Shown: one piece after another, positions 2 to 12,814 of the stretch
How the letters are laid out: each line of letters begins with the position of its first letter
Position numbering within the stretch: the stretch's first letter is position 1
Assembly: GCA_963718615.1 (NCBI GenBank)
Contig: OY970368.1
Location: 5,888,001 to 5,952,000, forward strand
DNA length: 64,000 bases
Reading direction: 5' to 3'
From: an uncultured cyanobacterium
GTDB lineage: Bacteria; Cyanobacteriota; Cyanobacteriia; PCC-9006; JAAUQQ01
Notes under the pieces: generated by a model
The model's database searches: none
What the model was told of the DNA's origin: nothing
The model's input: only the letters and a program-made list of their open reading frames with translations
Translations under genes and position numbers: made by a program

Positions 2-589
2 AACCAAGGACTGATGCAGATCGACCTCAACCTTGAGCTGCGGGTGGAAAAAGCTCTCCTCCCAACCATAGGACTCCTTACGGGAGTAGCCTTGAGATAA
101 GAGAAACTCACCAGCCTGCCTAAAGTCCTCAGGCTTAACCAGTAGATCCAGATCCGTAAACTTTCTTAGGCCTAGATCCTGATAGGCAAGTTGAGCAAGG
201 GTAGGACCTTTATAAGGAATCGCAATAAGGTTCCTTTGCCCCATACCCTCCAAGAGTCGAGCCAATTCTCGGGTCAGAAAAACCGTTCGCATTCGATTGG
301 CCAGAAAACTAGTCTGTAAAGTTCTAGAAACGGATGATGGCAACACATGCGGATAAAAGACCCTGAGATTATGACTCACTAACGCCGTTACACCCTGTTG
401 AAGTGCCAAATGTAAGAAAGCTTGCCAATCGAGATCACGAAACAACTCAGGTTCTAGCTCTTGGGCTGGGGCAACCGAGAACGTACTCAAGGATAGCCGA
501 AAGAGAAGTTGCCATTCCTGGCTTAGGTGAGGATTCTGCTGGAATGGATTGTAGGGAGTTGGGCGATCGCCTGACCCAGTCGTTTTCAT
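2..589 (-). CDS. Nucleotidyltransferase family protein (NTP_transf_5-like), 3'-partial at window edge; absent from ORF track
   Basis: Manual translation from ATG at 589: MKTTGSGDR...LDWQAFLHLALQQGV...IPYKGPTLAQLAYQDLGLRKFTDLDLLVKPEDF...VEVDLH; contains the KG..LA..Y...R...DxD motif; no stop before base 1. Confidence 0.85.
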   Translation of the reverse strand, partial: MKTTGSGDRPTPYNPFQQNPHLSQEWQLLFRLSLSTFSVAPAQELEPELFRDLDWQAFLHLALQQGVTALVSHNLRVFYPHVLPSSVSRTLQTSFLANRMRTVFLTRELARLLEGMGQRNLIAIPYKGPTLAQLAYQDLGLRKFTDLDLLVKPEDFRQAGEFLLSQGYSRKESYGWEESFFHPQLKVEVDLHQSLV

Positions 590-669
590 ATTAAAAATTC
601 AATATTATTGACGTCAATCTTTGAACGATTAAATACCATCGACGCAAAATCTCCCTAGACAGCCTCCTT

Positions 670-1833
670 TTAAGCTGAGTATGGATTTCCCCAATTATTT
701 CGAAGCCTACGCCAAAAATGCCCAAGCTGACGCTGTAGGCCATAGGGCACAACCGTAAAGATAGATTTAATTTGCCAGCTATCCCGAAGAAACTGTAAGA
801 ATGCTAACCAAGATTCATTCTGTTCTAAGACCGAGGCTTGCCGCTGATATTGAACATATCGACGCACAATTCGAGCCATAAGATGATAATTCTGATTCAC
901 GACAAACATTGTCTCCCATTGCTCAAGTCTTGTAGGAACTGCGGATTCAACTAAATTCGACCATTTTGTACAATCTGGTAGAGAAATTTCTAACTGGCGT
1001 AGATCAGAAAAGAGTAATTGTAGAGGCGCTAAAAGCTTATACTGGATTGCAGACTTCAGCAAATCTTGCCCATCGACTTCACTGGCTTGTAATAGCGCAA
1101 TAAGTTCTACAAAATCTAACAGTAAAGATTCCCGGTTATCGACCATAGCCACAACTCGATACAAAATCTGATCCGTCAGAGACCAAGTTCGGCTGCTGAC
1201 TTCGCCCATGTTTCCATCTAAATCATAGGCAATCGAACGCTCCCAAAGCTTCTGCACAATCGCGGGAGAAGGACTCCAATGACTCAACTGACGATACAAC
1301 AATAACGGTGGATAGGTATCATGGATAAACCAGAGACACCCTGCCCACCGTAGTGTCTCTAGGGGATTTAAGGAATTGCTCTTCCATCCCAACTGCTGTA
1401 ATTGGGTTGCGATCGCCGTACAGTGTTCGAGGTGAATTTGGAACCGTAGATCCCTGATCGGAGCAAGACCCTTATCATAGGGGTTTTCAGCTTGCCATAA
1501 GCCTCGGTTGAGCCAAACAATCGGAACTTTAGACTCATGACAAAATTGAAACAGAGATCTTAACGCTAACAGAATCGTCTGGTTTTTACACCAGGAAAGT
1601 CGTTGTACTCCCTTAATTCGAGGTAGAAGAGGGGTTTGAATCCCTGAGGCTATGAGTTTTCTATGAATGTTTGGAAGGAGCTGATAGGTTTGTCCATCCA
1701 GATCTTCAAAGTCAATTTTATTTAACCATTTTTTCCATAAAATATCTGCCGAGACATCAGATGAATAAAGAAACTTTAATAGATATTGATGTTCTAAATT
1801 CAAGTTCTTCAACAAAGACTGCATGATAGCCAT
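670..1833 (-). CDS. Nucleotidyltransferase-like protein (NTP_transf_5-like), degenerate active site
   Basis: N-terminal W..W...IDFEDLD...YQLLP...RIKG..R.SW.KN pattern typical of this family; KG and DxD motifs replaced by WLNRG / IRDLR. Confidence 0.6.
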   Translation of the reverse strand: MAIMQSLLKNLNLEHQYLLKFLYSSDVSADILWKKWLNKIDFEDLDGQTYQLLPNIHRKLIASGIQTPLLPRIKGVQRLSWCKNQTILLALRSLFQFCHESKVPIVWLNRGLWQAENPYDKGLAPIRDLRFQIHLEHCTAIATQLQQLGWKSNSLNPLETLRWAGCLWFIHDTYPPLLLYRQLSHWSPSPAIVQKLWERSIAYDLDGNMGEVSSRTWSLTDQILYRVVAMVDNRESLLLDFVELIALLQASEVDGQDLLKSAIQYKLLAPLQLLFSDLRQLEISLPDCTKWSNLVESAVPTRLEQWETMFVVNQNYHLMARIVRRYVQYQRQASVLEQNESWLAFLQFLRDSWQIKSIFTVVPYGLQRQLGHFWRRLRNNWGNPYSA

Positions 1834-1905
1834 GATGGATAGAAGTTTACAAATGCTAGAAGTTTAATGATGCGGGACTAAAGCCCCTACAGAATAGGAA
1901 GATCG

Positions 1906-3615
1906 TTAAGCAGATAGACTATCGGGTGAAGTGGATGCTTGAGGAGAGAAGGCTGAATAGGGGAGGAGTTGGCGATCGCGCAACTCATAAATCTCGTCTG
2001 CCTCTTCAAGTACTTCTGGATTATGGCTAATTATTAAGATTGCAGGCATATTTTCCAACTGTCTCAGATTCTTTAGAAGGGTTTTGATGGCTTGAATATC
2101 AAGATGATTGGTCGGTTCGTCTAGGAGTAGTAGCTTGGGCTGAGTGATTAGGGCGCGGGCGATCGCCAATCTCTGACGCTGCCCTCCCGAGAGTCGCACA
2201 CCCCGTTCTCCAACTAACGTCTCATAACCTAGCTCCAAACCACAAATAAACTCATGGGCCATTGCAAGCTTACAAATCTGAACGAGCCGCTCATCATCAA
2301 TCCCAGAAACACCATAAAGAATATTTTCCCGAACCGAACCCTCAAAAATAGAACCATCCTGCATAACAACTCCAATCTGTTTGCGAAAATGTCTAATATC
2401 GAGAACTTGATAGGGATAGCCATCGGCCCAAAGACTGCCGCAAGTCGGCTCATGGAATCCAATTATTAGCGAGAGCAACGTACTCTTGCCTATGCCATTC
2501 GGGCCAATAATCACAATCACTCTGCCTGGCCAAGTCACTAGATTAACATGATGGAACAATGCTGCACTCGATTGACTAGAATAGGAGAATTCTACATCTC
2601 TCAATTCTATATGACCTGTAAAATCAATCTGTGTTTTTCCCTTATAAGGCGTGAAAGAGACTTCCGAAAACATTACCTCATAGAGCTTTAAGAGTGACTC
2701 ATGACCTTCAAGAATATCAGGTAAAAGCTGGAGAACTCGGAACGCATGTTCTTTTGCCAACCAAGCTGTACCCAAAAAGGCCAAGGTCTCTCCAGGCGTT
2801 GTTTGCCCCTGACTCAACAGAAAGCTGCTCGTTACCAAGACAAGCATGATTAATGTCGTCATCATCAGGTTATTCACTTGACCGTGAAATGCACCCAGCC
2901 AAACAAAATTCAAGTGGGTAACGTGTTCTTGTCGGACAAGCTGCATTTGTCGGGAAATTTCTTCTTCTTCTGCTCCGCGTAAGCGAGTCAGATCGATTTG
3001 TTGAAAAACGAAACGAGATCCTCGAGCATAGTCTTCACAAGCGCGATGATATCGACTAATTCGCCCTTGAATACGTTTCCCAATCCAGAAGTTTACACCA
3101 TAGACTAAGGGAATTAGAATAAAGGCTAACAAAGATAGAATTAAATTTAGTTTAACGAGAATGCCAACAAAAATAATCGTTATCAGAAAAGAGGGAATGA
3201 CCTGAGAGATCAGGTTAATCATCATGACATCTAATCGACGAGTATCTTGGTTGATGATAGTATGGAGTCGATTTTGATCGGCTTGGCTATAATAAGTTTT
3301 TGAAAAGCTATATAATCGCCTTAGTAGAGCTATCCAAAACTTTCGAATTGCGGTCTTACCAATTTTCAGCATATTGTAGCGGCTCCAAAGAATCGCCACG
3401 CTATTAAGCAGATAGAGAAGCATAATGCTGCCGGTTGCTAGCCCTAGTTGTTTATAATTCTGGCTAGGCAAAACTGAATCAGCAACGTACTTCATGATTA
3501 GTGGAATCGGAAGTAGGATTAAAACCTGAAAAACTGATATCAGAATAGAGAAGGCTAGCCAAACATAATGACCTCGATAAAACTGGAGATAGTACAGCCA
3601 TGGATTTGATTTCAT
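1906..3615 (-). CDS. ABC exporter, fused TM + ATPase domains (no C39 peptidase domain)
   Basis: N-terminal TM segments; Walker A GPNGIGKST, signature LSGGQRQR, Walker B LLLLDE. Confidence 0.95.
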   Translation of the reverse strand: MKSNPWLYYLQFYRGHYVWLAFSILISVFQVLILLPIPLIMKYVADSVLPSQNYKQLGLATGSIMLLYLLNSVAILWSRYNMLKIGKTAIRKFWIALLRRLYSFSKTYYSQADQNRLHTIINQDTRRLDVMMINLISQVIPSFLITIIFVGILVKLNLILSLLAFILIPLVYGVNFWIGKRIQGRISRYHRACEDYARGSRFVFQQIDLTRLRGAEEEEISRQMQLVRQEHVTHLNFVWLGAFHGQVNNLMMTTLIMLVLVTSSFLLSQGQTTPGETLAFLGTAWLAKEHAFRVLQLLPDILEGHESLLKLYEVMFSEVSFTPYKGKTQIDFTGHIELRDVEFSYSSQSSAALFHHVNLVTWPGRVIVIIGPNGIGKSTLLSLIIGFHEPTCGSLWADGYPYQVLDIRHFRKQIGVVMQDGSIFEGSVRENILYGVSGIDDERLVQICKLAMAHEFICGLELGYETLVGERGVRLSGGQRQRLAIARALITQPKLLLLDEPTNHLDIQAIKTLLKNLRQLENMPAILIISHNPEVLEEADEIYELRDRQLLPYSAFSPQASTSPDSLSA

Positions 3616-3619
3616 AAAG

Positions 3620-4501
3620 CTATCTGTTATGAATGGGAACAGTTCTATGCATTAACGACAATCCTGAGTCAATCTTTAGAACCGTTCCTGTCGTATATTG
3701 TGAAAAATAGTTTGATGCTAAATAAATGGCTGCACGTGCTATATATTGAGGAGGAATTTTTGTCCCATAAAGTTGACCTTTATGATCAGGTATTGGAGTA
3801 TTATTGTCATCCAGACCTATCCAACCAGGTGCAATACCATTAACTCGAATATTCATCGGTGCTAGTTCAACCGCAAGTTCTTGGATAATCATACCGATCG
3901 CAGCCTTAGAAGAGCTATAACAGGCATAGCCTAAAGGGATCCATTGGTGGATAGAAGACAGAAAAATCATGTTGCCCATGATCTGCTTTTGTATCATTTC
4001 TTGAGCCAATAGATGTGTCAGGTATACAGGGCCAAGAATATTAGTCTGATATGTTGTCTGCCACTCAGCAAGAGCAAATTTTTTGATGGAGCTGGGTAAG
4101 GTAATGCCTACATTATTGATTAACACATCAATAGTGACATCTATTTCCGTTAAGCCTTGAAAGACTTGATCAATTTGTGCGAAGTTTGTAATGTCACAGA
4201 CAAATCCTTGACAGAAGCCTCCTATCGCTTTTAAGTCTTGCTCAAGCTTTTGCTTAAGCTCTTGGTCGATTTCGATAAAATAGATATTGGCTCCTTGTTG
4301 TATGCATTCGAGGGCGATCGCCCTACCAATATTACGTCCAGCTCCCGTAATCAAAACATTTTTTCCCTTCAATAAACTTCCCATGGCTACGAGCTGAATA
4401 TCTGGCGGATATTGAATGGAGCAAACGTTTGTTTGACTTTGAGATTCTGGCGGTGACATAAAAGCGTGAACAGCAGCTCTAATTCTAGGAAATGTAAACA
4501 T
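3620..4501 (-). CDS. SDR family oxidoreductase
   Basis: TGAGRNIG NAD(P)-binding motif, NNVG, YSSSK catalytic motif, IRVNGIAPG. Confidence 0.9.
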   Translation of the reverse strand: MFTFPRIRAAVHAFMSPPESQSQTNVCSIQYPPDIQLVAMGSLLKGKNVLITGAGRNIGRAIALECIQQGANIYFIEIDQELKQKLEQDLKAIGGFCQGFVCDITNFAQIDQVFQGLTEIDVTIDVLINNVGITLPSSIKKFALAEWQTTYQTNILGPVYLTHLLAQEMIQKQIMGNMIFLSSIHQWIPLGYACYSSSKAAIGMIIQELAVELAPMNIRVNGIAPGWIGLDDNNTPIPDHKGQLYGTKIPPQYIARAAIYLASNYFSQYTTGTVLKIDSGLSLMHRTVPIHNR

Positions 4502-4546
4502 AATTGATTTCCCTATCTTCTATTTCCTATTCTCTTTTATACATTT

Positions 4547-7027
4547 TCAACTTACATCATGTTTTGACAAAACTTTCCGAATTAACCCCAAGTAGCTCTC
4601 TATCATCTGCTTCTCTCGAAAGACGGTCTCTGCTCTTTGCTTACAAGCCGCTCCAAGCTGCGGCAGCAGCTCTGGCCGATTGGCCCAACTTGCTAGGGTG
4701 TCTGCTAATGCTCTAACTGTCGCTTCAGAATCAACCGCCGGGTCCGGTAGTAAGACTCCAGTATTTCCTAACTCTTCAGGGATTCCGCTGACGGCAGAGG
4801 CAATCACAGGCACTCCTTTAGCCATGGCTTCCATAATTGCAAGGGGCATGCCTTCAAATTGAGAAGGTAAAATAAAGATATCTGCCGCATCTAGTAAATC
4901 GGGTATATCGTTACGCTCACCGAGAAATTGGATGCGATTTTGGAATCCTAAATCCCTGACTAGTTTTGTGAGACGGGCATCATCGTTGCCAGTACCTGCC
5001 CACAAAAAGTGCAGATAATTAAAGACTGCATGCTCCTGTAACTGCTGAAGTGCTTTTAGTTGATATTGATAGCCTTTACAAGGATCTAATCGAGCAGTTG
5101 TAAGACAGGCTATTGCATCGTGAGGCACATTCAAGCTTTCACGAATTCTCTTACGATTTTGCTTGTCTTTTTGTTCAAAATAAATATTAGGCCTACCGTT
5201 ATAGATAACTTGTCCAAAATTCTGATTTAGAGCGAATTTTTGATGCAACAAATCAAGATTTTCCTGAGAAACTGTAACAATAGCTTCTGCATGCTTATGA
5301 ATTTTAGAGATTCGTTCGATATAAGGACTTAATAGATCAGCCCAAGTCCTTGTTACACAGTGAATGACTACAATAAAAGGGATTTTTAAATCTCGTGCAA
5401 CTTCCATCGCCGTTAAATTGGATGAAGGTTCCCCATTAGAAAAAACTATTAGTTCTGGCCTGATCTTTTGAAAAATTTTGAAGGACTCAGACCAATCGCA
5501 AAGCTCACGATCCGTAGTGATTGTGAGATATTGACCGGGCTTGAGCCAATGGTGATAGATCCCTAGTTGCTCTCGTTCCAGAAAAAGAGAATCATCTAAC
5601 TGAGGCTGCACACAAGAAATCTGAAAATTCTCTTCGGACAATGCTAAAAGTAGACGATGATTCCACTGCCCAACACCATAGATCCCCGTCCGATTACTAT
5701 AGAGTAAAATGTTTCTGGCCGTAGAAGATTTTTCTCCTTTCAATGATTCACTAGAACAGCTAGGTTTAATAACACCTAGGTTTACAAGCTGCTGACTATT
5801 TTTAAAACAAATAGAGATTTCCTGGTCATAAAGGCTGAGATTATGACATTCACGAAGTTTTTTAGCGTATTGTTTATATTGAAATGCTCCTTCATGATGT
5901 TCCTGTCTAAGAACTTCGCGTTCAACATAATCAATAAAGTTTCTAATATATTTAAAATGCAATACTGCTCCAGTTTCAGTTGAAATTTGATCTTCAAATG
6001 TCCCGATAAAATGTTGACCACCACTCAATAACATAGAAGAATGGTACTTGATGAGCGGAATTTTATTGAGATAATAATCACCCTCCTCTCCAAATACTCT
6101 TGCTCGCATTCCTCCTGTATAGCGTATTTGACCTGTATAGGGAGGCTGGGTTTCAGTAATTTTTCTATGGAAAGGCACTTTATCAAAATAGGGACAAACA
6201 TCTAAAAAGTCCTGACCTGCTTGATAGGTTGTTTCCTGGATTGGGCGATCGCTATACATATCCAACAAAATAGCAGGAAAAGCTCGCTTGTATTGACGAT
6301 CTAAATCTGCACAAAGATCTTTGATGCTACGTGTTTCACAATCGGGATAGATAAGTACTTCATCGGCATCAATCGTAAGACACCAGTGGTCAATTCCATA
6401 TTTCTGAAGTAAAAGTTCAAACCAAGCAGAACCGAAGTTGACCTGGTTAAATGAATAATTGCTGTTCCAAACCATTACATCAGCTTGGGTTTGTAAATAA
6501 GAGCCGGTCTCATCACTTGAGTTGTTGTTGACAATCAGAAACCGATCTACACCCTTTTGACGATAGTATTGAAGCAGATAAGGTAGCCGAAGACTTTCAT
6601 TTCGCACTACAATACAGCACAAAATATCATCCTGTTTAATCTCTAGGGCTTCCCCACTCATTCGTCGTAAGTCGTAGTGCTCAAATGCAGCCTCAAATCC
6701 CTTGACCTTAATCAGCAGATGACTCAGTTGCTTATGAAATTGCTCAACATTAGAATAATAAGATAATGCCTGACTATAATGTTGAATTGCCTCTTCCAGG
6801 CATCCTTGCTTTATGAGTAAAGGTCCACAGCGTGCGTATGCTTCCAGGCAGTTAGGTTGGAGTTGAATAACCTGACGATAGCCCGTGATCGCTTGTTCAA
6901 TGCGCCCAGTCAAACTCCAGGCATGAGACAACTTCAATCGAGCCTGAGCCTGCTCGGTGAGCTCTTGTTCTCCAAACGTCTTCCCACAAAGCTTTTGGAT
7001 ATCGTCAAATGAATCTAGCATGGCCAT
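4547..7027 (-). CDS. TPR + GT2-like (Glyco_tranf_2_4 type) + GT4 multidomain glycosyltransferase
   Basis: N-terminal TPR (EQAITGYRQVIQLQPN); VRNE..RLPYLLQYYRQKGVDRF, WCLTIDADE and LHFKY; C-terminal GT-B motif FILPSQFEGMPLAIMEAMAKG. Confidence 0.85.
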   Translation of the reverse strand: MAMLDSFDDIQKLCGKTFGEQELTEQAQARLKLSHAWSLTGRIEQAITGYRQVIQLQPNCLEAYARCGPLLIKQGCLEEAIQHYSQALSYYSNVEQFHKQLSHLLIKVKGFEAAFEHYDLRRMSGEALEIKQDDILCCIVVRNESLRLPYLLQYYRQKGVDRFLIVNNNSSDETGSYLQTQADVMVWNSNYSFNQVNFGSAWFELLLQKYGIDHWCLTIDADEVLIYPDCETRSIKDLCADLDRQYKRAFPAILLDMYSDRPIQETTYQAGQDFLDVCPYFDKVPFHRKITETQPPYTGQIRYTGGMRARVFGEEGDYYLNKIPLIKYHSSMLLSGGQHFIGTFEDQISTETGAVLHFKYIRNFIDYVEREVLRQEHHEGAFQYKQYAKKLRECHNLSLYDQEISICFKNSQQLVNLGVIKPSCSSESLKGEKSSTARNILLYSNRTGIYGVGQWNHRLLLALSEENFQISCVQPQLDDSLFLEREQLGIYHHWLKPGQYLTITTDRELCDWSESFKIFQKIRPELIVFSNGEPSSNLTAMEVARDLKIPFIVVIHCVTRTWADLLSPYIERISKIHKHAEAIVTVSQENLDLLHQKFALNQNFGQVIYNGRPNIYFEQKDKQNRKRIRESLNVPHDAIACLTTARLDPCKGYQYQLKALQQLQEHAVFNYLHFLWAGTGNDDARLTKLVRDLGFQNRIQFLGERNDIPDLLDAADIFILPSQFEGMPLAIMEAMAKGVPVIASAVSGIPEELGNTGVLLPDPAVDSEATVRALADTLASWANRPELLPQLGAACKQRAETVFREKQMIESYLGLIRKVLSKHDVS

Positions 7028-7030
7028 AAC

Positions 7031-7750
7031 TTACTGCTCCGGTAAGGTATTGCTTGAGGACATTCTATCTCCTGCACGACGGCGATCGAGCGAAGCCTTA
7101 ATTGCATGCAGGTATTGATTGCGATCCTCCCGATTGGTTAGGCCTACATTCGTTTTATGTAATCGCCGCTTTGCTAGGACATCAGGTAATGTCAAGCTTT
7201 TTAAGCTTGCATCCTGAGCACGAATTAACCACTCTACAAATTCCCCCGCTGTCAAACACTCGTTAAAATTTCCAACGGTTTGAAAGACCGAGTGACGAGC
7301 CATCATGGTTGTAGCATTATGGCCTACTACTGGAGATGGCGGACAATAGAGGCGAGTCTTTGCTTCCGGTTCTAAGTCTGGACTTACAAAACACTGAAGA
7401 TGGGTGAAAATCAGATCCGTAGAGGGCTGATCAAGAATGGCTTGCACTTGCCGTTCTATTTTAGTCGGCATCCACAGGTCATCTGCATCTAAAAAGGCTA
7501 TCCAGTTGCCACTGGCCCTTGCAAGTCCAAGATTGCGAGATGCAGGTGCACCTTGGTGAGAATTTTGAATTGGAGTAACTTGGGGGAATTGGCTGGCGAT
7601 CGCCAAACTCCTATCCGTAGAACCATCGTCTACCACAAGAATCTCATGCACAGGAAAACTTTGAGCCAAGACGCTTTCAATCGTCTGTCCTAGATAGCGT
7701 TCTCCGTTATAAACAGGAATAATGGCACTAATGGAGAGTTTGTTGTTCAT
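7031..7750 (-). CDS. Glycosyltransferase family 2
   Basis: ISAIIPVYNGE, VDDGSTD, FLDADD. Confidence 0.93.
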   Translation of the reverse strand: MNNKLSISAIIPVYNGERYLGQTIESVLAQSFPVHEILVVDDGSTDRSLAIASQFPQVTPIQNSHQGAPASRNLGLARASGNWIAFLDADDLWMPTKIERQVQAILDQPSTDLIFTHLQCFVSPDLEPEAKTRLYCPPSPVVGHNATTMMARHSVFQTVGNFNECLTAGEFVEWLIRAQDASLKSLTLPDVLAKRRLHKTNVGLTNREDRNQYLHAIKASLDRRRAGDRMSSSNTLPEQ

Positions 7751-7777
7751 TTTTCTCGAGCAACCAAGGAAACATAA

Positions 7778-8557
7778 TCAATTTATCAATTCACTACCAT
7801 GTCCAACATATGCCGAAACACTTGGAAAGTTAGGAGGTGGGGGAACCTGAAGCGTAGCATCCTGTCGTATTCGATTGAGACGACGCTTATAAATTTGAAC
7901 AGTGCCTAACTCGATTTGATTTTTGTTGCGAGTCATATTCGCTTCATGTCGTTGATAATGCAGGACTACATCCTCTATCTCAAGCTTCCATACTCTCTTT
8001 TCCCAAGCCCTCAAAAACCAGTCAATATCTTCTCCATACAGCAACGTCGAATCAAATAAACCAACCCGCTCGAACACGGATTTGCGATAGAGTGAGCTAC
8101 CTATGTTAACAAATCTATAAGTTTCTGAAGAAAACGCTCTATTTTCTGCTTCTTGATTGAGAGATTCGGTTGATCTGGCCTTCCAAACTTTCTGAAGTAT
8201 CAGTCCTTGAATAATATCAAACGATGGGTTTTGCTGTAAGCAAAGTGCCATCTTTGTGAGAATTTTATCTCCCCACAGATCATCAACATCAAGAAAAGCA
8301 ATCAAGTCTCCACTGGCAACTTGAATGCCATGATTTCTAGCAGCCGCAGGTCCTTGATTTTCCTGATATAAATATTTAATTTCATCTTGAAGGCTGAGTG
8401 CAATGTTCTCAGTGGAGTCAGTCGAACCATCATTCACAACGATAATCTCCAAAGGAGAATACCTCTGAGCTTGAATATTCTGAATGGTACCTCGCAGAAA
8501 TTTCTCGCCGTTATAAACTGGAAGCACAACGCTAATTAGGGGTAGAGGCACAGTCAT
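7778..8557 (-). CDS. Glycosyltransferase family 2
   Basis: ISVVLPVYNGE, VNDGSTD, FLDVDD, GEDIDW. Confidence 0.93.
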   Translation of the reverse strand: MTVPLPLISVVLPVYNGEKFLRGTIQNIQAQRYSPLEIIVVNDGSTDSTENIALSLQDEIKYLYQENQGPAAARNHGIQVASGDLIAFLDVDDLWGDKILTKMALCLQQNPSFDIIQGLILQKVWKARSTESLNQEAENRAFSSETYRFVNIGSSLYRKSVFERVGLFDSTLLYGEDIDWFLRAWEKRVWKLEIEDVVLHYQRHEANMTRNKNQIELGTVQIYKRRLNRIRQDATLQVPPPPNFPSVSAYVGHGSELIN

Positions 8558-8559
8558 TT

Positions 8560-9657
8560 TTATTGCCTCTCTAGAAGGAATCTTTTGATCAACTGGTGTA
8601 TTGCTTGGCTGTCTGTTCCAACATTCAGATAGAAACAGGGCAACTGAGACAATGTTTGTGTAATTAAGTCACAGGCGGCTTTACCGGCCCCCCCTAACTG
8701 CATAATGGTACTGGGTATCAATGCCACAAGACTCTCCTCTAGCGTGGCCTGAGTCATGGTAGTATTCAGTTTTCCGGTCACTCGCGGAATGAAAATAGCG
8801 TGAATTGGAGCAGATTTTAGAAGTTTTTCTGGCATCCACTCATGAATAAAATAAACGGCCTTCTCTTTATCTAGTTGTTCTGGATTGCTAATGTAGGGCT
8901 TCAGAAAGGGTAAGCGATCGAGATCGTTTGCGTTCTTTTTGCCCGTATTATAAATACTAAATACAGTTGGCTTAGGTTCTGCTGTGATCAAACAATAGTC
9001 ATCGCTGACATACCTCAAGTCCGAATTCAAACTGGATAATGCCGTCGTTGACTTTCCCGATCCCCCTTTTCCAACTAACAGTATACAGCCCTCAGGATAT
9101 CCAATTGATGCTGCATGCACTAGCTGAATCTTTTGCGCACTTAACCATACATTCAAAATACTTTGAAAAGGTGCCCCCCTTTCCCAATAGGGAATTAAAG
9201 TATGATCTTCAACCCAATACAGCGCAAGATTCTGTTGTTTATCTACAATTACAAGCGCGTTTGATTCCCATTGCCGAGCCGTGTAAATACGTTCATTGAC
9301 AAAACCACGGACCTCACCTCGCTTCTGATATTGGTACTCTTCCCAGACTGGTGCAGGTCGGGAGATGCCAGTTTCTTGGCTGCTGATGAGGCAAATGGTG
9401 AGGTCAGGAGTTTCAGCCGGTGAGACCTCTAGATGGGCGATCGCCCGCGTTAACAAATTAATCAGCGCTTCCCCGGTAAAGCGTAAACAAACAATAAAAT
9501 TAGCAATTTGAAAGTACCGAACTGTTAAGTTTTGACTTTCTAGTTCTGCCTTCTGATAGGTTTGATAAACCTGCTCAAAATATTCGATTGAGCGCGATTG
9601 CTGCAACTCTGCGCTGCTTTCCAATAGTGAGCTAGTCATTGAGTCTTGAGGGATCAA
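8560..9657 (-). CDS. HPr kinase-like P-loop Ser/Thr kinase
   Basis: HAASI...ILLVGKGGSGKSTT...YVSDD, the His / Walker A / DD signature of the HPrK catalytic domain. Confidence 0.8.
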   Translation of the reverse strand: MIPQDSMTSSLLESSAELQQSRSIEYFEQVYQTYQKAELESQNLTVRYFQIANFIVCLRFTGEALINLLTRAIAHLEVSPAETPDLTICLISSQETGISRPAPVWEEYQYQKRGEVRGFVNERIYTARQWESNALVIVDKQQNLALYWVEDHTLIPYWERGAPFQSILNVWLSAQKIQLVHAASIGYPEGCILLVGKGGSGKSTTALSSLNSDLRYVSDDYCLITAEPKPTVFSIYNTGKKNANDLDRLPFLKPYISNPEQLDKEKAVYFIHEWMPEKLLKSAPIHAIFIPRVTGKLNTTMTQATLEESLVALIPSTIMQLGGAGKAACDLITQTLSQLPCFYLNVGTDSQAIHQLIKRFLLERQ

Positions 9658-10100
9658 GCAGCTACATCCTTGGATACATTAGGCCAGCCTGACTCATCTA
9701 CATCATGAATAGGATCGACCAGCAACAACTCTTGCATATCGTTATACTTATTGAGTTCAGCTGGAATGAAGGCTAATCGATTATTACTCAAGTCTTGACT
9801 CAAATCTAGGCTCTGATCTGGAGCGGCTATCCCATCACTCTTTGAAACTAACCCTTCGTTTTCTAAAGACAGAACTAAAGCAGTGAGCGATGCCTGAATT
9901 TCCTCGGGTGAAGATATATATTTTTTCTCAAGTCTATCGCTGATCTCAGCCAACGAGCAGCCATGAATTAGCATTTCCCAAATCTCCGCGCCAGTCTCGA
10001 CAAGACTATAATAGTCTCCCGTCATCATGTTGATAATGACGACTTCTCCTGAGATAGTTTCTTGCAAAACTTGGGGAGCAACTTTAAATCTAGATTCCAT
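9654..10100 (-). CDS. PqqD/RRE family protein with C-terminal leader/core-like extension
   Basis: aa 1-86: ETISGEVVIINMMTGDYYSL.ETGAEIWE.L...SL..I...L...Y......L..EGLV (PqqD fold pattern); aa 111-148 extension FIPAELNKYNDMQELLLVDPIHDVDESGWPN. Confidence 0.85.
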   Translation of the reverse strand: MESRFKVAPQVLQETISGEVVIINMMTGDYYSLVETGAEIWEMLIHGCSLAEISDRLEKKYISSPEEIQASLTALVLSLENEGLVSKSDGIAAPDQSLDLSQDLSNNRLAFIPAELNKYNDMQELLLVDPIHDVDESGWPNVSKDVAA

Positions 10101-10498
10101 GTATTATATAAACTCCAAAAACACAAACCCAAAAAACGACTTGTCTCACTTCAATCCATAACTCTTAATGAATAGTAATGGGAAATGAGCAGTAATGGGA
10201 GCTTAAAATAGCCTAGAGAATGCAGAACAATTATTTTAGGCGATAATACAGGCTAACCGTAATAAAAGCAACAATATCGCCTGTTTTATTAAATAATGTA
10301 AAATTGGCCTGAGATTAATTTCACATTATTGCTCGTCATGATGTACAAGAAAGAATAAGATTTTGCGGCACAAGGCGTGATAGCACTCCTTCTGTCAGGG
10401 CAAGACTATGTCTCATTGCGACACCAAGTGTGCCGTCTTTTAAGGTTCTCTAAGATACAGTGTGTTTTGCGGTTGATTTCCTTACACAAAAAAGTTGT

Positions 10499-11779
10499 AT
10501 GATCGATCTTTTTGCGATCTGTCTTTTCGTTCTATTTTTGATTATCTGTATTCCGATTATACGAATTTTCTGGAAATTTATTATACTATTACGCTCTTTT
10601 AACCGCTCTCCCATAGATTTGAGTAGTTATCCCAAAGCTGCAATTGTCCTTAGCATTCGTGGCGTTGATCCATCTTTGCAATCATGTCTTGAAACGTTGT
10701 TCAATCAAGATTACCCCGATTATTATGTGTCTATTGTTGTAGATAGTGAAGAAGGTGAGGCTTGGCAAGATGTTAATTCGATTGTCCGTCAAGCTGCTCA
10801 AAGGAATATCCAAGTGTCTCCCCTACGCGATCGCTCTAACGCTTGCAGTCTTAAATGTAGTGCTCTAGTCCAAGCAATTTCAGAGCTGGATTCCTCCTAT
10901 GAAATTATTGCCATTATCGATGCAGATGTGGTCACTCACTCTTCTTGGCTGAGAGAACTTGCGACACCGTTAATTGACAATAGTCAGATCGGTATCACCT
11001 CAGGCATCCGGTGGTATGTACCGACTCTTAAAGCAATGGGTTCACTCAAAATGGGCTCGGTAGTTCGTTACCTATGGAATGTTTCTGCCGCGATCAGTAT
11101 GTTTTATTACAACTGTCCTTGGGGCGGATCTATGGCAATGCGGCGATCGCTCTTGCATGAAGGAGGACTTTTAGAGCTTTGGAAAAGAGTTCTATCCGAT
11201 GACAATACGGCTGCCACAACGGCTCAAGGTCTTGGACAGACTATCCAGTTTGTTCCTAGTGTCATTATGCTCAACCGTGAATCTTGTGATTTGTTGGGAT
11301 GTTGGCGCTTTATAAAACGGCAATTTCTATGGTCATGCCTCTATCATCCCCAATGGAATGAAATCATTGTGCGGGTATGGTTGAGAATTATTCTGCTTGG
11401 CATAGCGGCGATTCTTCTGCCCATTGCTCTGTTTACGCAGCAGTGGTCCACGGTATTGTGGACCCTAGGGGGAGTGCTTCTCTATAGCCTGACAATTATT
11501 GCTGCATTGGTCATCTCAGAAGTCGAAATTCGTAAGATTGTACAGTTTCGAGGGGAGAGGATTGAAAACTTTTCGATTGCCCAGATGATTCCCCTTGTTT
11601 TTCCCCTTGTCCTCGCCCATATCGTCTCTTTGGCTGGAGCGGTTGCAGCAACGACTATGCACCAAGTTGAGTGGCGAGGAATTAGGTACGACATCCAGAA
11701 TCCATTCCAGGTAAGCCTTCTCAACTACAAGCCCTATGGCACTGTATCTGTTGAGCGCAGTAATCGATCCATTCTGTAG
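10499..11779 (+). CDS. Membrane glycosyltransferase (GT2/GT21, HpnI/ceramide glucosyltransferase-like); ORF track start 10460
   Basis: N-terminal TM, L.QDYPDY, K..AL, IIDADV, WGGSMA, SDD, RQ..W motif, C-terminal TMs and VEWRGIRY. Confidence 0.8.
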   Translation: MIDLFAICLFVLFLIICIPIIRIFWKFIILLRSFNRSPIDLSSYPKAAIVLSIRGVDPSLQSCLETLFNQDYPDYYVSIVVDSEEGEAWQDVNSIVRQAAQRNIQVSPLRDRSNACSLKCSALVQAISELDSSYEIIAIIDADVVTHSSWLRELATPLIDNSQIGITSGIRWYVPTLKAMGSLKMGSVVRYLWNVSAAISMFYYNCPWGGSMAMRRSLLHEGGLLELWKRVLSDDNTAATTAQGLGQTIQFVPSVIMLNRESCDLLGCWRFIKRQFLWSCLYHPQWNEIIVRVWLRIILLGIAAILLPIALFTQQWSTVLWTLGGVLLYSLTIIAALVISEVEIRKIVQFRGERIENFSIAQMIPLVFPLVLAHIVSLAGAVAATTMHQVEWRGIRYDIQNPFQVSLLNYKPYGTVSVERSNRSIL

Positions 11780-11812
11780 TGAAATCCCTGAAAATACTTA
11801 TCTAGTTTTGGT

Positions 11813-12814
11813 TTATATCTCTTCCCTGTCACTATGATTAGGTAAATTATTCTGATTACTGTAGCGAAGAGAAACTCTCAATTTGAAGATTTCTATGGGA
11901 GTTAGCCAACGCTGTGTCTTTTTCATTTGTTTATAGTGTACGCATGACGTGCAGGGAATATCTTCTCTTTCCTCTTTTTTCCCCAACAACATATCTCTGG
12001 CGTAGGAGATTTTGGAACCCGTAAGAACTTCCTCTAAATCATCTTTAAACGCATTGCCAAAATCTCCCCAAAAATTTACACAACATCCCAATACACGGCC
12101 ATCCCAGTTGATTTGAGGAATATTCCAGAGCTGACTACAGGCTTCCTGATGCAAGATATCTTCTGAGAGCGTCTCTACGGCTATCGACTCCTCACATTCA
12201 CCCGAAGACAAATCTTCATCCCAGGAAGGTTTTAGAAAGAATCGCATCCCCAGCGACTTCGCTAAATCATGTGCTTTTTGAATCTCATGTTGATTATGCT
12301 TAAAACTAACAAACTGCCAGCCCAGATCAGGAAATAGAGTACGATACTTTTTCTTGTAAAAGTTTAATCTTTCGATGTTTGCTATAACTCTATTGAAGTC
12401 TCCTTCCCTTCGATACAAACTATAAGTTTCTGGGGTTGCACCGTCGATTGAACAAGTGATTGCGTAAAACTTATATTTACACAGTCCTTCCAAGACTTCT
12501 TCTTTTACCGTATTAAAGTTTACGCCATTCCTGGCTGTCAATCTAATGCTGTGCTCATGTGCGTATTTCATAATGTCAAGAATCTGCGGATTTAAGAATA
12601 TCTCTCCCCAGTTTGACAGTTCTATGGACAGGATTTGAGGATTTTTATCCAATAAAGTTTTAAAATCATCGAATTTGAGAAATCCTCCTCCAAGATGCTT
12701 CTTGATTTCGCCCATGGCTGTCGGACAAGAAGGACATTTTAATTGGCAGTTTGACGATGCTTCTAATCGAATATTTTGAAATTGATTATGGGATTGCATA
12801 GATTTTGTTGTCAC
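11813..12814 (-). CDS. Radical SAM protein with SPASM/twitch domain
   Basis: CQLKCPSC (CxxxCxxC), NWGE, SIDG; C-terminal CSQLW...INWDGRVLGCC...CTSC. Confidence 0.88.
   Translation of the reverse strand: MTTKSMQSHNQFQNIRLEASSNCQLKCPSCPTAMGEIKKHLGGGFLKFDDFKTLLDKNPQILSIELSNWGEIFLNPQILDIMKYAHEHSIRLTARNGVNFNTVKEEVLEGLCKYKFYAITCSIDGATPETYSLYRREGDFNRVIANIERLNFYKKKYRTLFPDLGWQFVSFKHNQHEIQKAHDLAKSLGMRFFLKPSWDEDLSSGECEESIAVETLSEDILHQEACSQLWNIPQINWDGRVLGCCVNFWGDFGNAFKDDLEEVLTGSKISYARDMLLGKKEEREDIPCTSCVHYKQMKKTQRWLTPIEIFKLRVSLRYSNQNNLPNHSDREEI

Follow-up and report, generated by a model that had tools for sequence, protein, structure and literature searches.

The 64,000-nucleotide stretch analysed here (hereafter the window) comes from an uncultured cyanobacterium (GenBank assembly GCA_963718615.1, contig OY970368.1, positions 5,888,001 to 5,952,000 of the forward strand). 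On its reverse strand lies a gene for a small protein that joins a RiPP recognition element (RRE; RiPP, a peptide made on the ribosome and modified after translation) to a conserved C-terminal tail. This gene heads a cassette of kinase, glycosyltransferase, nucleotidyltransferase and exporter genes that runs from position 10100 down to the window edge (Table 1). The usual picture of an RRE is that of an adaptor which captures the leader of another peptide. A sequence-only reading had proposed that here the RRE is followed, across a linker, by a leader- and core-like peptide fused in cis at 9654..9770, and this layout was confirmed. The reverse strand of 9654-9770 holds the codons of residues 111-148 and the stop, and the product ends in ...NNRLAFIPAELNKYNDMQELLLVDPIHDVDESGWPNVSKDVAA. 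The codons run from base 9770 (F111) to 9657 (end of A148), with the stop at 9654-9656, so both the coordinates and the sequence of that reading were exact.

The N-terminal part of the protein is a lasso-type RRE, as identified by structure comparison and by family profile. Pfam PF05402 (PqqD) matched residues 19-85 with an E-value of 1.6e-13 (51.2 bits, against a gathering score of 23.4). An AlphaFold2 (AF2) model built on an alignment of 148 homologues reached a mean predicted local distance difference test score (pLDDT) of 85 and a predicted template modelling score of 0.76; from its pLDDT and from Foldseek, the domain has the three-stranded sheet and three helices of the winged helix-turn-helix fold. 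The six best Foldseek matches in the PDB were TbiB1 and TfuB1 with bound leaders (TMt 0.88-0.93, identity 25-29%), the top entries being TbiB1 5v1v (TMt 0.92), 5v1u and TfuB1 6jx3. The family profile searched against the PDB gave TbiB1 (3.9e-18), PbaB1 9x90 (5.6e-14), TfuB1 (2.1e-7) and LppB 9x8z (3.8e-6). The best NCBIfam matches were likewise lasso_PqqD models, NF033536 and NF033530, both under their cutoffs (43.6 versus 80 and 32.2 versus 70).

The tail is a family character and is conserved far beyond chance. A word-indexed search returned 308 candidate homologues, 280 of them at E<=1e-3; the 120 listed were 141-158 amino acids (aa) long and covered 91-100% of the query. Searching 1.84 billion cluster representatives with phmmer yielded 4895 matches at E<=1e-3 and 1865 at E<=1e-10, and all 150 of the matches listed extended to query residue 135 or further. 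Conservation was counted on the alignment of 148 diverse homologues. There, D121, D129, P130, G138 and W139 were invariant (148/148), H132 was kept in 147 rows and P140 in 146. By mean information content per column, the tail (110-140) stood at 3.15 bits, ahead of the RRE (10-88) at 2.10 and the linker (89-109) at 0.70. No row had an insertion or deletion between F111 and V134, and one additional residue between 134 and 139 occurred in 9/148. The consensus, F-x-x-P-x-L-x-K-Y-x-D-M-Q-x-L-L-L-x-D-P-I-H-x-V-D-E-x-G-W-P, bears out the prediction that homologues would share F/YxxPxL..Y.DM..LLL.DPIH.V...GWP after a variable linker. The tail alone had no match in Pfam (E up to 10) or in the ESM atlas. 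Within a 201-genome sample of the phylum, nine genomes, the window's included, had a match that reached the tail. One of these genomes (G122) had a second tail-bearing copy (C24:25502-25915), with a TAG in frame within the match; this copy may be a pseudogene.

The first part of the tail resembles a lasso leader. The motif recognised by discrete lasso RREs, [Y/W]xxPx[L/V/I/A/F], spans positions -17..-12 of lasso leaders in the passages of PMC13381572 and PMC10368454 that treat it. In our alignment, F111 was present in 134 rows, P114 in 140 and L116 in 124, and the full [FYW]xxPx[LVIAFMY] motif in 138 of the 148 homologues. The window copy itself, FIPAEL, is off-consensus, with P113 and A114 placing the Pro one position early; the sequence-only reading had correctly called this Pro displaced, although the family norm is P114. 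It had also seen correctly that the Thr(-2)/Gly1 cleavage signature of lasso precursors is absent: the equivalent positions are L126 (L in 134/148) and V/L128 (L in 113/148), and the tail does not conform to a lasso precursor.

The model predicts that this motif is docked on the domain. By block, pLDDT stood at 90-98 over residues 1-90, fell to 70-77 in the linker, rose to 95 over 111-120 and dropped to 56-59 over 121-148, and DSSP assigned a strand at 117-119, directly behind the motif Leu. The solved complex of PbaB1 with its leader (9x90) shows the motif in a cleft between beta4 and the helices, and there the three residues past the motif Leu lengthen the antiparallel sheet; the window motif lies in the same register as that bound leader. 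Alignment by hidden Markov model (HMM) moved PbaB1 numbers onto the window protein (PbaB1 number = window protein number + 8, checked on 16 named residues). The PbaB1 pocket and sheet residues Y38-N40, L41, I48, L65, Y69, F83, L87 and L92 correspond to Y30-S32 (Y30, Y31, S32), L33, I40, L57, Y61, L75, L79 and L84. These positions were kept in 95-148 of the 148 rows, except position 75 (majority F, 80/148), and they rank among the best conserved of the RRE, so the residues of a leader cleft are retained. The expectation that the tail would add a beta strand and dock was thus upheld for 111-120, with its strand at 117-119, and failed for the DPIH..GWP part: segment 121-148 is not docked on the RRE, given its pLDDT of 56-59.

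Proteins with several RREs separate the two parts of the tail. Eight of the relatives listed hold two or three RREs (P0121, P0142, P0148, P0155, P0219, P0238, P0245 and P0259). Among their 21 RRE copies, 13 carried the strict [FYW]xxPx[LVIAFMY] motif 17-21 residues past the domain, where by our estimate roughly two would be expected by chance; several of the remaining eight had a relaxed form, for instance with the Pro displaced as in the window. Exactly one DPxH..GWP segment was found in each of seven of these proteins, and in P0259, with two RREs, none by pattern and one degenerate D-P segment by eye. The motif therefore goes along with the RRE domain, and the invariant segment forms a module apart from it, mostly present once per protein. 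Taken together, the match to the leader motif, the AF2 placement of 111-120, the conserved groove residues and the motifs of multi-RRE proteins support the proposal that the RRE binds its own tail. We think it quite likely that the RRE keeps hold of a leader-like motif of its own, with residues 121-140 left exposed as the cassette's functional handle.

No stand-alone precursor was detected, in agreement with the sequence-only reading. Across the 185,579 species genomes scanned, a relative was encoded at 327 loci, of which 80 were kept for locus comparison; open reading frames (ORFs) were considered within ~8 kb, and 38 loci had at least 6 kb on both sides (full-flank loci). A tail HMM run on all stop-to-stop ORFs of at least 20 aa from the 80 loci and the 64-kb window found one tail per locus, always on the RRE ORF, and no small same-strand ORF was conserved in the 80 loci. 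A word search with residues 105-148 for shorter proteins gave a single match, P0270, which was rejected as a stand-alone tail peptide, since it is a full-length homologue cut short on a contig of 505 bp. A search for longer tail-bearing proteins gave nothing, which is weak evidence because phmmer does list fused forms.

The genes around the RRE-with-tail gene recur in distant bacteria. Related loci occurred in Acidobacteriota, Chloroflexota, Nitrospirota, Gemmatimonadota, Cyanobacteria, delta-proteobacterial groups, Verrucomicrobiota, Bacteroidota, Actinomycetota and further groups. In tblastn searches, 75/80 loci had an HprK-like gene and 74/80 a GT2 glycosyltransferase. The full-flank loci (n=38) contained an HprK-like kinase in 36, GT2 in 37, NTP_transf_5 in 30 and an ATP-binding cassette (ABC) exporter in 20. 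The common order is RRE-tail, kinase, then two or three GT2 genes; accessory genes included GT4, GlcNAc-2-epimerase-like, short-chain dehydrogenase/reductase (SDR)/epimerase and methyltransferase genes. The tailoring enzymes to which the tail had been proposed to be presented are thus conserved as far as the HprK-like kinase, the GT2s, NTP_transf_5 and the ABC exporter are concerned; a neighbouring radical-SAM/SPASM gene (11813-12814, reverse strand, 333 aa) was rejected as a cassette member, with relatives in 0/38 full-flank loci. The best NCBIfam match of its product was a tungsten-cofactor oxidoreductase maturase, far under cutoff. A membrane GT21/HpnI-like gene divergent to the RRE gene (10460-11779, forward strand) was rejected likewise (0/38 full-flank loci, 0/80 loci). 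A scan of 9500-10700 for promoters and terminators stayed at chance level (4 found, 3.8 expected).

Table 1. Positions in the window of the RRE-with-tail gene, the parts of its product and the other cassette genes
Feature	Position	Strand	Remarks
RRE-with-tail gene, 148 aa	9654..10100	(-)	stop 9654-9656; ORF list and Pfam PqqD; single copy in 6.10-Mb one-contig genome
PqqD/RRE domain, residues 19-85 (fold ~4-88)	9846..10046	(-)	PF05402, AF2, Foldseek, profile against PDB
Variable linker, residues 89-110	9771..9836	(-)	0.70 bits/column, length varies; pLDDT 70-77
Cis leader-like motif F111-I-P-A-E-L116-N-K-Y119 (family FxxPxLxKY)	9744..9770	(-)	conservation, pLDDT 95, strand 117-119
Near-invariant exposed segment D121-MQELLLV-D129-P-I-H132-DVDES-G138-W-P140	9681..9740	(-)	conservation; pLDDT 56-59
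Variable C-terminal end, residues 141-148	9657..9680	(-)	0.91 bits/column
HprK-like P-loop kinase, 365 aa	8560..9657	(-)	directly downstream of RRE-tail gene; 4-nt overlap with TTG start, 14 nt away with ATG at 9639
GT2 glycosyltransferase	7778..8557	(-)	PF00535 7.7e-32
GT2 glycosyltransferase	7031..7750	(-)	PF00535 6.7e-33
Tetratricopeptide repeat (TPR) + GT2_4 + GT4 fusion glycosyltransferase, accessory	4547..7027	(-)	relatives in only 9/80 loci
SDR oxidoreductase, accessory	3620..4501	(-)	
MsbA-like ABC exporter	1906..3615	(-)	membrane and ATPase parts fused, without peptidase domain
Divergent NTP_transf_5-like protein	670..1833	(-)	without Pfam or NCBIfam match; clusters with PF14907 protein of L002, 22% identity, E 4e-13
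NTP_transf_5 nucleotidyltransferase, cut by window edge	2..589	(-)	PF14907 3.3e-35

The two NTP_transf_5-type genes that adjoin at the end of the window cassette have counterparts in three related loci, L011, L050 and L080, which also carry pairs of this family. For comparison, 18 loci with tail-less RREs were taken from the same 201-genome sample of the phylum: no HprK-like gene lay beside these RREs and no tail-like ORF was found at the loci, where a search at E<=1 gave one chance-level match (0.72). Beside a tail-less RRE in two phylum genomes were runs of ~320-aa ORFs ending in an RRE-like domain (L094:1646-6491 and L089:811-2734); they are a different RRE-fusion family.

The kinase is divergent. 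On its P-loop region it had weak matches to TIGR04355, TIGR04352 and Hpr_kinase_C, with TIGR04352 and TIGR04355 at 22.8 and 23.7 bits against a cutoff of 200. G196, G199, G201, K202, D219 and D220 were invariant among 46 sequences and S203 nearly so; from its invariant P-loop and D219-D220, the kinase looks catalytically competent. Its AF2 model (pLDDT 95.2) best matched ATP-dependent phosphoenolpyruvate (PEP) carboxykinases across both domains in Foldseek (E 5.6e-11, TMq ~0.5). The N-terminal 170 residues had no family match, and the two-domain, PEP-carboxykinase-like architecture comprises more than the HprK C-terminal domain. Prediction of a complex between the RRE-tail protein and the kinase gave an ipSAE of 0.32 (runs 0.44/0.32/0.11), with 0.01 for the best of three controls; the runs had at least 44% of contacts in common and a partner pLDDT of at least 69. 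In a benchmark of this score, the mark was attained by 116 of the 157 solved complexes and by 2 of the 215 mismatched pairs; at values up to 0.60, just 18 of the 157 solved complexes and both mismatches attained it. As a model, this lends weak backing to the pairing of RRE-tail protein and kinase.

Gene fusions also connect the components. An HprK-like domain ends two of the eight multi-RRE proteins, P0155 and P0219; the latter is arranged as RRE-tail/RRE/RRE/kinase and resembles the window kinase at 34% identity (E 3e-65). Related loci contained 15 long ORFs of the HprK cluster (584-855 aa), and the three scanned by Pfam (L012:11707-13512, L049:4660-7224 and L064:12321-14393) were HprK-GT2 fusions, one of them with two GT2 domains. 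These fusions suggest joint action of kinase and glycosyltransferase.

The nearest known counterpart is the phospho(glyco)peptide machinery of the LPP and paeninodin type, which differs in that the leader is here fused in cis. The LPP clusters of Bacillota, lppA-K-B-S-D-N, are described in passages of Popov et al. (Nat Commun 2026, PMC13381572), according to which the precursors are separate peptides of 35-200 aa that begin YxxPxVLxHQxIxFETxxS, and the kinase poly-phosphorylates core Ser3, with LppK rejecting S3T and S3Y. For paeninodin-type lasso peptides, the residue that the kinase phosphorylates is the C-terminal Ser, and in pseudomycoidin a nucleotidyltransferase puts hexoses on that phosphate, as set out in parts of PMC8498205. 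LPP, paeninodin, Bsf and pseudomycoidin all have their RRE-bound peptides modified by the same trio of enzymes, accompanied by an MsbA-like pump, by the accounts in the relevant passages of PMC13381572, PMC10368454 and PMC8498205.

With the LPP clusters, the window family shares the RRE, the HprK-like kinase, an NTP transferase, the MsbA-like exporter, glycosyltransferase-rich loci and the lack of a macrolactam cyclase. It also shares a leader motif for the RRE cleft ([F/Y]xxPxL, where LPP has [Y/W]xxPx[L/V..]), the part behind it being free for enzymes. The differences are as clear. The LPP leader lies at the N-terminus of a separate precursor, whereas the leader-like motif of the window family lies on the C-terminus of an RRE that, bearing a tail, is not strictly discrete. 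The anchor residue is Tyr in LPP and Phe in the window family, and the segment after the motif is variable with a phospho-Ser in LPP but invariant and without a conserved Ser here. LPP clusters encode a SipW-like signal peptidase I, whereas none was seen in the window cassette or the neighbour clusters scanned, although no dedicated S26 search of the 80 loci was made. The passages of PMC13381572 on distribution restrict LPP to Bacillota, in contrast to the many phyla of the window family. The window RRE profile is also nearer to the lasso B1 proteins (TbiB1) than to LppB.

With paeninodin, Bsf and pseudomycoidin, the family has in common a B1-type RRE of the kind that takes YxxPxL at -17..-12, an HprK-like kinase and a nucleotidyltransferase. 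It differs from these phosphorylated lasso systems in having no cyclase, B2 protease, Thr(-2)/Gly1 signature or C-terminal Ser acceptor; neither a lasso cyclase nor a B2 protease was found among the window genes at 2-12814 or the conserved neighbour clusters scanned. The systems covered by TIGR04352, TIGR04353 and TIGR04355 likewise place a PqqD-family chaperone beside an HprK-related kinase, but scores against them lay far under the cutoffs (18.7 versus 35, besides the two kinase scores above), and their PqqD models are 74 aa long and tail-less. Substrate and recognition or enzyme module are joined in one polypeptide in borosins, whose core is fused to its own methyltransferase, and in NHLP/Nif11 protein-sized leaders; there, however, the peptide is joined to an enzyme or to a leader domain and not to an RRE that binds its own leader. 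Full-text literature searches, with the supplements of PMC13381572 outside their scope, and term look-ups in the RRE surveys PMC12710340 and PMC7470986 turned up no account of a natural fusion of RRE and leader or of the present tail.

What the exposed segment does is a further question. The reading we favour, at about even confidence, is that it is the substrate, making the RRE protein a built-in acceptor for phosphate and sugar decoration. Computation places the protein's own [F/Y]xxPxL in the leader groove of its lasso-type RRE, in cis. D121...D129-P-I-H...G-W-P140 would thereby be kept flexible and exposed where the leader-core junction would lie. Going by homology to the RRE-dependent kinases known from phosphorylated lasso peptides and LPPs, the neighbouring kinase with its HprK/PEP-carboxykinase fold would recognise the RRE-leader unit, and the GT2s and the NTP_transf_5 transferase would probably do so too. 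If these enzymes act on the exposed segment, the RRE protein itself would accept or prime a decoration made of phosphate and sugar, a product that the MsbA-like pump would then handle. In the characterised relatives, the RRE-leader unit does deliver the peptide downstream of the leader to the enzymes, as passages of PMC13381572 report.

Several observations weigh against the segment being a substrate, the first of them being the lack of a conserved hydroxyl acceptor. Tails without any Ser/Thr from D129 to the end number 27/148, and in 4/148 both residues are lacking all the way from F111; at position 119, 114 rows have Y, 29 have F and 5 have H. The known HprK-like RiPP kinases are Ser-specific. 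The sequence-only reading had listed a Ser in DPIHDVDESGWP among the acceptors of a modified core; this Ser proved not to be conserved (position 137 is S in 39, T in 37 and A in 34 of 148). No Ser/Thr is conserved in the tail, and the chemistry cannot be the Ser phosphorylation of LPP and paeninodin. Candidate sites, if there is any chemistry, are D129, H132, W139 and the partly conserved S/T at position 120 (107/148). In LPP, 18 residues separate Y-16 from phospho-Ser3, and the same count from F111 leads to the invariant D129; since ~30 positions include five invariant ones, however, a coincidence of this kind has a chance of about 1 in 6 and is weak alone. The kinase is absent from two of the 38 full-flank loci (L021 and L034), and neither the cassette genes of the window nor the conserved neighbour clusters scanned include a peptidase, although no search aimed at S26 peptidases covered all 80 loci. 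Liberation of a free peptide is not general, because in P0155, P0219 and P0245 the invariant segment follows the first RRE and is internal, with more domains behind it. The docking in the canonical groove is itself modelled from pLDDT, DSSP and homology, not from observed contacts, and the kinase complex prediction came without a reported interface. Finally, an invariant core is atypical for RiPPs, and a docking motif fits the conservation equally well.

A tail that recruits or activates is the main alternative, possible if somewhat doubtful: the RRE with its cis pseudo-leader would serve as a stable adaptor, and the invariant segment, as a short linear motif, would dock into the kinase, a GT2 or NTP_transf_5 to build or turn on a machine with a different substrate, for example a sugar, some lipid-linked glycan or a second protein. 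Near-total invariance without a conserved Ser/Thr is typical of a docking motif; AF2 also leaves the segment disordered on its own, and it stands internally in kinase fusions. The loci are moreover rich in glycan genes (GT4, GlcNAc-2-epimerase-like, SDR/epimerase), MsbA-type pumps move glycolipids too (by NCBIfam names), and the weak complex score suits binding as well as catalysis. Against it stand the preserved leader-core-like register, with no indel, the failure to find any alternative acceptor gene conserved in the loci, and the characterised RRE-leader units, whose downstream peptide goes to the enzymes in the passages of PMC13381572 cited above.

More specific chemistry can be drawn for an acceptor that lacks hydroxyls, and we think it improbable. 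The RRE-tail protein would be the primer or carrier for a phosphate-linked glycan on a non-hydroxyl residue, with the kinase activating Asp129 or His132, or with Asp-Pro processing itself. Asp129-Pro130 does lie at the place that holds the phospho-Ser in LPP and at which the leaders of lasso peptides and LPPs are cleaved. Asp-Pro self-processing is known in GDPH/VWD domains and in the RTX 'clip-and-link' module. Such a step would replace the missing leader peptidase and would either release P130-I-H...GWP or join the new Asp terminus to a GT2-made glycan.

An autoinhibitory role is also unlikely. The cis motif would then be a pseudo-leader, displaced by a trans precursor encoded elsewhere, and the invariant segment would be regulatory. 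AF2 does dock the leader-like motif in cis, and the precursor search covered ORFs within ~8 kb. However, RRE copies in multi-RRE proteins each tend to bear their own motif, a tethered motif has a high effective concentration, the gene is single in its genome with no tail-like ORF in the 64-kb window, and the 80 loci hold no conserved small ORF. A mere structural extension, stabilising an otherwise insoluble RRE so that conservation reflects folding, is very improbable: LppB is insoluble without its leader and residues 111-120 pack on the domain, but the most conserved part (121-140) is the one that does not pack, and an HprK-like gene accompanies tail-bearing RREs in 75/80 loci versus 0/18 for tail-less ones.

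If the RRE protein is indeed its own acceptor, it would represent a new architecture for peptide or protein modification, in which the recognition protein is its own precursor, in a family found in 327 of the species genomes scanned and 1865 clusters (E<=1e-10). It would also explain thousands of orphan RRE/HprK-kinase/nucleotidyltransferase/glycosyltransferase cassettes that appear without a precursor in genome mining. As the function of LPP- and paeninodin-type products, like the final LPP product, is given as unknown in the passages of PMC13381572 that discuss it, a conserved, invariant acceptor would be an easier entry point. The 148-aa protein would thus provide a defined object in which the chemistry of NTP_transf_5 enzymes and of non-Ser HprK-like kinases could be mapped by mass spectrometry.

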